This document shows, piece by piece, positions 1 to 676 of a DNA stretch of 676 nucleotides. The first letter of the stretch is position 1, and the number at the start of each line of letters is the position of its first letter. This DNA comes from a phage. The notes under the pieces were generated by a model. The model worked only from the letters and a program-made list of their open reading frames with translations, made no database searches and was not told the origin of the DNA. The translations under genes and the position numbers were made by a program. The DNA is taken from the sequence record AF056264.1, one strand, 5' to 3'.

Positions 1-146
1 AAAATCGCCAATGGTTAGCGTGATCCNAATCTTAAGTCTGGCGTAATTAATCTTGTTCATGATAATCAGATTATTCAACTGTACTCTAAAGATGTGAACT
101 TAAACAAAAATTCTAGTTGAAGATCTAGAAGGTATCACACCTCACT

Positions 147-413
147 TTGACTCTGAATCCTTTCCGTGAAATCAAAGTGGAAGTCGCCCCTCAAATTGAA
201 NGTGGTCAACACCTAAATGTCAATGTGTTAAATCCTGATCAGCTTTTGGATGCCCAGAAACATCCTGAAAAATACCCTCAGTTAACCATTCCTGTTTCTG
301 GTTATGCTGTGCGCTTTAACGCACTGACACGTGAACAGCAGAACGACGTTATTAGTCCTACATTTACTCAGCGATNTNATGGGGCTGGATACGGGTTCTA
401 CGAACTACGTTAA
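147..413 (+). CDS. grcA: GrcA/YfiD-like autonomous glycyl radical cofactor (PFL C-terminal-type glycyl-radical domain); partial or disrupted as read, start and stop both uncertain
   Basis: Frame-3 translation (in-frame open from 129 after TAG 126-128) gives ...[71 protein letters not shown]... From memory this matches E. coli GrcA (...[25 protein letters not shown]...[39 protein letters not shown]) and the PflB C-terminus (...GGQHLNVNV...[38 protein letters not shown]). The REIKVEV-AP block before GGQ is GrcA-like rather than PFL-like. Radical Gly codon is ggt at 300-302. N at 201 (ngt) is predicted to be G, giving the conserved Gly-Gly. No in-frame ATG; the only candidate start is TTG 147, with a weak SD-like gaagg (128-132) 14 nt upstream, which is too far. 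Homologous region is about 132..371; the 3' end at 413 is probably a read artefact (see findings). Confidence 0.8.
291..317 (+). other. Glycyl-radical signature segment (P-V-S-G-Y-A-V-R-F), radical glycine at codon 300-302; Arg expected at the first position reads as Pro
   Basis: Codons cct gtt tct ggt tat gct gtg cgc ttt translate to PVSGYAVRF; the canonical glycyl-radical enzyme motif is RVSGYAVRF (the Gly carries the radical in PFL/GrcA). Seen directly in the sequence. Confidence 0.8.
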
Positions 414-676
414 GGTAGTCAAACAACGCATTTATCTNCCAGNTTTAAGAAAAATGTTTGGATCGAACCTNAAGACTCTCCCNGNCACGTNTNAANAACA
501 CCCCCGAAATTGGGGACATCTNCCCCATAAAAAANCCTCAACGGTTAGNTTATCACACNCNCCNGGACNGTGCTGTTGGAAGTTTGGGAACCCGCNAACN
601 CNTTAGAATAGTGGANCGGNTGAAAACCNGAANTTGAAAGGAANCCNGATCCGACTGCGNGNGAGAATTGAAGCGT

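Follow-up and report, generated by a model that had tools for sequence, protein, structure and literature searches.

Apparent prolines at three conserved arginines of a GrcA-like gene in a BF23-like phage read are very probably base-calling errors

In E. coli, the stand-alone protein GrcA (YfiD) takes the place of the glycyl-radical domain in PFL cleaved by oxygen (PMC8683613). A phage protein, T4 Y06I, is described in the same paper, which cites Wagner et al. 2001, as a "spare part" glycyl-radical protein that is reported to restore O2-damaged PFL. According to that paper and its reference 27, both YfiD and T4 Y06I have been shown to receive the radical from the PFL-activating enzyme and to rescue O2-cleaved PFL. 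In PflB itself, the residue carrying the radical is G734 (PMC12338860). The stretch of DNA analysed here (676 bases, hereafter the window) contains a gene for a GrcA-like protein in which arginines conserved in this group of proteins appear as prolines. Comparison with related phages indicates that three such "prolines" are very probably base-calling errors in a single-pass read of a BF23/T5-type GrcA-like gene.

In BLAST searches of phage genomes, the whole window matches T5-like phages (Tequintavirus), with BF23 closest over bases 28-420 (95.7% identity) and the next-best phage at 92.7%. At about 20 of the 22 sites that discriminate between BF23 and T5 the window carries the BF23 allele, the exceptions being positions 176 and 182. 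The 30 Ns of the window are unevenly spread (0-2 per 50 nt before position 450 and 6-7 per 50 nt afterwards), and this profile is characteristic of a single-pass + strand read that was left unedited. Judging from its sequence, the window represents the raw output of one fluorescent (Sanger-type) sequencing pass along the + strand in the tRNA region of a BF23-like phage of the T5 family (Tequintavirus); the source could be an unsampled close relative of BF23 with private changes, rather than BF23 itself. A bacterial source, namely GrcA or the C-terminus of PflB/TdcE, was also considered and was rejected because T5-like phages match the whole window, whereas E. coli genomes match only positions 198-371, with 74.7% identity, in tdcE. 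The tRNA-Met gene of BF23 and T5 ends just upstream of window base 1, and a search for tRNAs in the window, prompted by its position in the phage tRNA region, found none. Bases 1-27 diverge from BF23/T5, with the RBS AGGAG unrecognisable and MKAYQ read as MVSVI, a divergence typical of an unreliable read start. The product of the following gene, trn2.22/T5.055, has a basic N-terminus (VDRALRRHHRQRVKNN...).

In BF23 and T5, the GrcA-like gene is a CDS of 369 nt (122 aa in BF23) with its own RBS, located between tRNA-Met and trn2.22/T5.055. The BF23 copy, ORF trn2.21 (OR083247.1, 26914-27282), is annotated as "putative formate acetyltransferase" (CAE53183.1 / WLW40667.1), the T5 copy is T5.056 (YP_006884.1), and the same gene in other Tequintaviruses is annotated as "putative autonomous glycyl radical cofactor GrcA". 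By annotation and alignment, the gene is already known, intact in all finished genomes examined and conserved across T5-like phages. In the window, the true CDS extends from atg at 11-13 to tna at 377-379 (TAA in BF23). It is interrupted by four indels, with two Ns close to the stop, and the upstream part of the protein is carried in frames 1 and 2 of the read (Table 1). The window aligns with BF23/T5 over the whole CDS, the product of which, at 122 aa, is a small stand-alone protein and not the C-terminus of a full-length glycyl radical enzyme. The window ORF, as read, matches the Pfam family PF01228 Gly_radical with 54.7 bits (cut-off 22.2; E=1.6e-14).

Table 1. Features of the window, in window coordinates
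Feature	Position	Strand	Basis
CDS of GrcA-like glycyl-radical protein (BF23 ORF trn2.21, T5.056)	11..379	+	BF23/T5 alignment and annotation; Pfam Gly_radical
Two dropped Gs, each a -1 frameshift relative to BF23/T5	93/94, 110/111	+	BF23/T5 alignment
Extra C before the fourth TCGT (ttt CGT = Phe51-Arg52), +1 frameshift	164	+	BF23/T5 alignment
Four AG>AA (171, 176, 182, 232) and one AG>AN (201)	171..232	+	BF23/T5 alignment
cct for CGT, Arg75 (NVNVLS-R-D)	234..236	+	BF23/T5 alignment
cct for CGT, Arg94 of the R-V-S-G-Y glycine loop	291..293	+	BF23/T5 alignment
RVSGY glycine, ggt, read correctly	300..302	+	Aligned to the RVSGY glycine of 6owr and 1h16 (radical site G734 in PflB)
cct for CGT, Arg116 of S-R-T-F-T	357..359	+	BF23/T5 alignment
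Dropped G (cag gcg atg taa read ca-gcgatntna)	370/371	+	BF23/T5 alignment
Start of next gene (BF23 ORF trn2.22 / T5.055, hypothetical protein)	458..676	+	Degraded read tail; BF23/T5 annotation

A sequence-only reading of this DNA had pointed out that two arginines conserved in GrcA and PFL are read as cct, at 291-293 and 357-359, both in a t-c-c-t context. All of this is borne out by the window, which contains att cct gtt tct ggt tat (I-P-V-S-G-Y) and agt cct aca ttt act (S-P-T-F-T), and by the alignments with E. coli GrcA (PDB 6owr) and PflB, which have Arg at both positions; YbiW likewise has Arg at both, as far as the alignment extends (through R-T only for the second motif). That reading did not list a third conserved arginine, the Arg of NVNV-L-x-R, which is also present in GrcA, PflB and YbiW and is read as cct at 234-236 (aat cct gat, compared with agt CGT gat in BF23/T5). 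Its count of seven Pro codons in ORF 147-413, all of them cct, is accurate, but its account of codon usage also took cct at 159-161 for Pro and cga at 372-374 for Arg. Both are out of the true frame, as a result of the frameshifts caused by the extra C at 164 and by the G lost between 370 and 371. Speaking against an artefact, no N occurs between 202 and 375, and bases 291-359 belong to a cleaner portion of the read.

Over bases 28-380, the window departs from BF23 at 13 positions (substitutions, deletions or Ns) and has one inserted base. The reference base is G at 12 of the 13 (the thirteenth is an N), with G accounting for 71 of 355 bases, or 20% (binomial P about 4e-8). In each of the 7 definite substitutions, G is replaced by the base that precedes it, AG being read as AA at 171, 176, 182 and 232 and CG as CC at 235, 292 and 358, an outcome with a chance of (1/3)^7, about 5e-4; no C, T or A of BF23 is substituted within 28-380. 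The GTG start of trn2.22/T5.055, farther downstream, is read as ttg at 458-460, again with G converted to the preceding base. Three G deletions and one C insertion amount to four frameshifts within a 369-nt CDS and split the 122-aa coding sequence over all three frames. Due to the C inserted at 164, ORF 147-413 has a false start, whereas the loss of G at 370/371 hides the TAA stop at 377-379 and creates the false cga; the apparent C-terminal extension of this ORF is not real. The changes at 176 and 182 are synonymous, with A for the G of BF23, and equal the T5 allele (aaA, gaA). Both are compatible with the AG>AA class of errors, but could alternatively be true polymorphisms, in which case a BF23-like strain, and not BF23 itself, would be the source.

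All 4 TCGT sites that BF23 has in this stretch are disturbed in the window, three being read as TCCT and the fourth as TCCGT, compared with 0 of 8 other CG sites (Fisher P about 0.002), and TCGT is absent from the read strand of the window. The TCGT sites of the opposite strand, which appear as ACGA at 343-346 and 400-403, are read correctly, indicating that the error tracks the direction of the read. By comparison, the CDSs of BF23 and T5 differ at 22 sites and show no indels; 18 of the changes are synonymous and fall at third positions, and 18 are transitions. Set against this largely synonymous divergence, the G-specific errors are the mark of a G signal that was weak or lost during reading, rather than of evolution. 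The discrepancies are biased in base and context and are accompanied by indels and Ns, a combination expected of a single-pass artefact.

Very probably, the G signal of this read is systematically weak or lost when G follows A or C, and the base-caller then doubles the preceding base (AG>AA, CG>CC), drops the G or writes N. In the T-C-G-T context, three CGT (Arg) codons have thereby come to read CCT (Pro), and TCCGT has arisen once. The physical cause is probably a context-dependent peak height in the dye chemistry, an effect generally known from fluorescent sequencing, and not GC compression, considering that the flanks are AT-rich and that AG>AA changes and dropped Gs occur in A-rich runs.

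A comparison of orthologues at the two codons, which the sequence-only reading had proposed as a check, supports the artefact, one of its two alternatives, BF23 and every related phage having CGT. Homologous loci were retrieved by patterns requiring CGT at one site, each set being unbiased only for the other site, and among the resulting 34 homologous genes (28 distinct sequences) the arginine of RVSGY is encoded by CGT in 34/34 and that of RTFT by CGT in 30, CGA in 2 and AGA in 2. The codon corresponding to 234-236 is CGT in 31, CGC in 1 and AAA (Lys) in 2, the last being distant homologues, and every T5-like homologue has CGT at these Arg positions. As read, the window has P-V-S-G-Y and departs from the glycine-loop motif R-V-x-G-[FWY]; the orthologous codon is CGT in BF23 and T5 as well as in these homologues, and the P is attributed to a miscall. 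Degenerate patterns applied to IMG/VR found 0 contigs with CCT and 20 with CGT at the RVSGY site, and 0 and 30, respectively, at the RTFT site; the zero hits of the CCT patterns cover the gap left by the biased retrieval. Searches of 50,697 phage records with the 41-mer around 292 and the 35-mer around 358 gave best matches of 40/41 and 34/35, respectively, with CCT in none of the records. Hence, the variant is absent from the independent sequences of the locus, as would be expected of an artefact. Collectively, the identity of the locus, the CGT codons of its relatives and the G-specific pattern confined to the read strand argue for miscalled bases. Arg75, Arg94 and Arg116 are almost certainly present in the protein that the template encodes, a GrcA-like product of 122 aa that is intact and has TFTQAM as its C-terminus.

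The homologues themselves display some variation. Distant stand-alone GrcA-like genes are present on four large non-T5 phage contigs (L011 and L019, viral contigs of 174 kb and 142 kb; L014 and L018, of 152 kb and 85 kb). Their proteins are 51-62% identical to the BF23 protein and end in ...RTFTESL, as does E. coli GrcA. Two of these four genes encode Lys (AAA) in place of Arg at NVNVxx-R, suggesting that this position tolerates Lys; the RVSGY and RTFT arginines are invariant. In a T5-like subgroup (L033, L029, L036, L026 and L038), the protein ends in QAI or QVI, not QAM, and is devoid of the F-R-E-[VI] motif near residue 52. Both traits represent natural variation within the family.

Two other explanations of the three codons deserve consideration. 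The CGT>CCT changes could be genuine, in which case an unsampled BF23-like phage would carry a decayed or diverged GrcA-like gene with R>P replacements at three conserved arginines, and its protein would not be activatable or would be unable to complement oxygen-cleaved PFL. Such a reading is in line with the placement of the codons where the read is better and has no N close by, and with the accessory nature of the gene in phages, which could in principle allow it to decay. However, decay would be expected to change all base types, mostly through transitions, whereas the discrepancies observed here are concentrated at G, each definite substitution copies the preceding base, and about 350 nt contain no non-G difference from BF23. 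Nor would decay be expected to affect the read strand only, or to produce three identical G>C changes confined to TCGT; G>C is an uncommon spontaneous substitution. With CCT also missing from all the viral contigs and phage records searched, we consider genuine changes at the three codons very improbable. Were they nevertheless real, a proline would stand beside the radical glycine, and either the gene would be dead or the activating enzyme would recognise the variant protein differently.

Classical GC compression, caused by secondary structure in the sequencing product, is the type of artefact that had been suggested initially. Being a sequencing artefact as well, it likewise predicts a template with CGT, and it is compatible with the TCGT context shared by the sites. 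Nevertheless, the flanks are AT-rich (att cgt gtt, agt cgt aca) and show no obvious G+C-rich hairpin, and compression would leave unexplained the AG>AA changes and the Gs dropped in A-rich contexts (aaaaGttc, tcaGgcg), whereas a general weak-G effect covers all of the events with one cause. Compression is therefore, in our estimation, extremely improbable. Between the two possibilities raised by the sequence-only reading, the systematic base-calling artefact is strongly supported and genuine inactivating substitutions are not, although "compression" is probably the wrong name for an artefact that consists in the loss of G after A or C, AG>AA changes and dropped Gs. The idea of a non-functional or functionally divergent protein falls away, since the Pro codons are very probably miscalls and the relatives have CGT.

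The original observation was correct and non-random, yet the feature is, on the evidence of these alignments, not biological but an artefact in an already annotated gene, and is a matter of quality control only. Read literally, the window would present a phage GrcA homologue without the Arg that adjoins the radical glycine, or a C-terminally extended pseudogene; either impression very probably stems from G-specific miscalls and frameshifts in an unedited read. The error signature, in which a G following A or C is lost or called as the base before it, can serve to flag other apparent mutations in reads of the same batch.

Among known systems, the closest is BF23 trn2.21/T5.056, which occupies the same locus, directly downstream of tRNA-Met and followed by trn2.22/T5.055, and from which (in BF23) the window differs only by G miscalls, 4 indels and Ns, all attributable to read errors. 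The T5/BF23 product is a putative GrcA-like "spare part" protein. T4 Y06I is likewise encoded by a phage, but of a different family, and the two are likened by description, not by sequence. Residues 48-121 of the BF23 protein align with residues 51-126 of E. coli GrcA (YfiD, PDB 6owr; E=1.5e-30), and the two are alike in being stand-alone, in their length of about 120-127 aa and in shared motifs that include RTFT. They differ in that the N-terminal ~47 residues of the phage protein are unrelated in sequence to GrcA and in that the phage protein ends in QAM, similar to the QSM of PflB, whereas E. coli GrcA ends in ESL. The alignment with PflB (PDB 1h16) pairs BF23 residues 61-122 end to end with residues 698-759 (E about 4e-27) and includes all three arginines and the glycine; PflB, however, is an enzyme of 759 aa, whereas the phage protein comprises only the radical domain and a short N-terminal part. 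The radical domain of the T5/BF23 protein is almost residue-for-residue that of GrcA and PflB.
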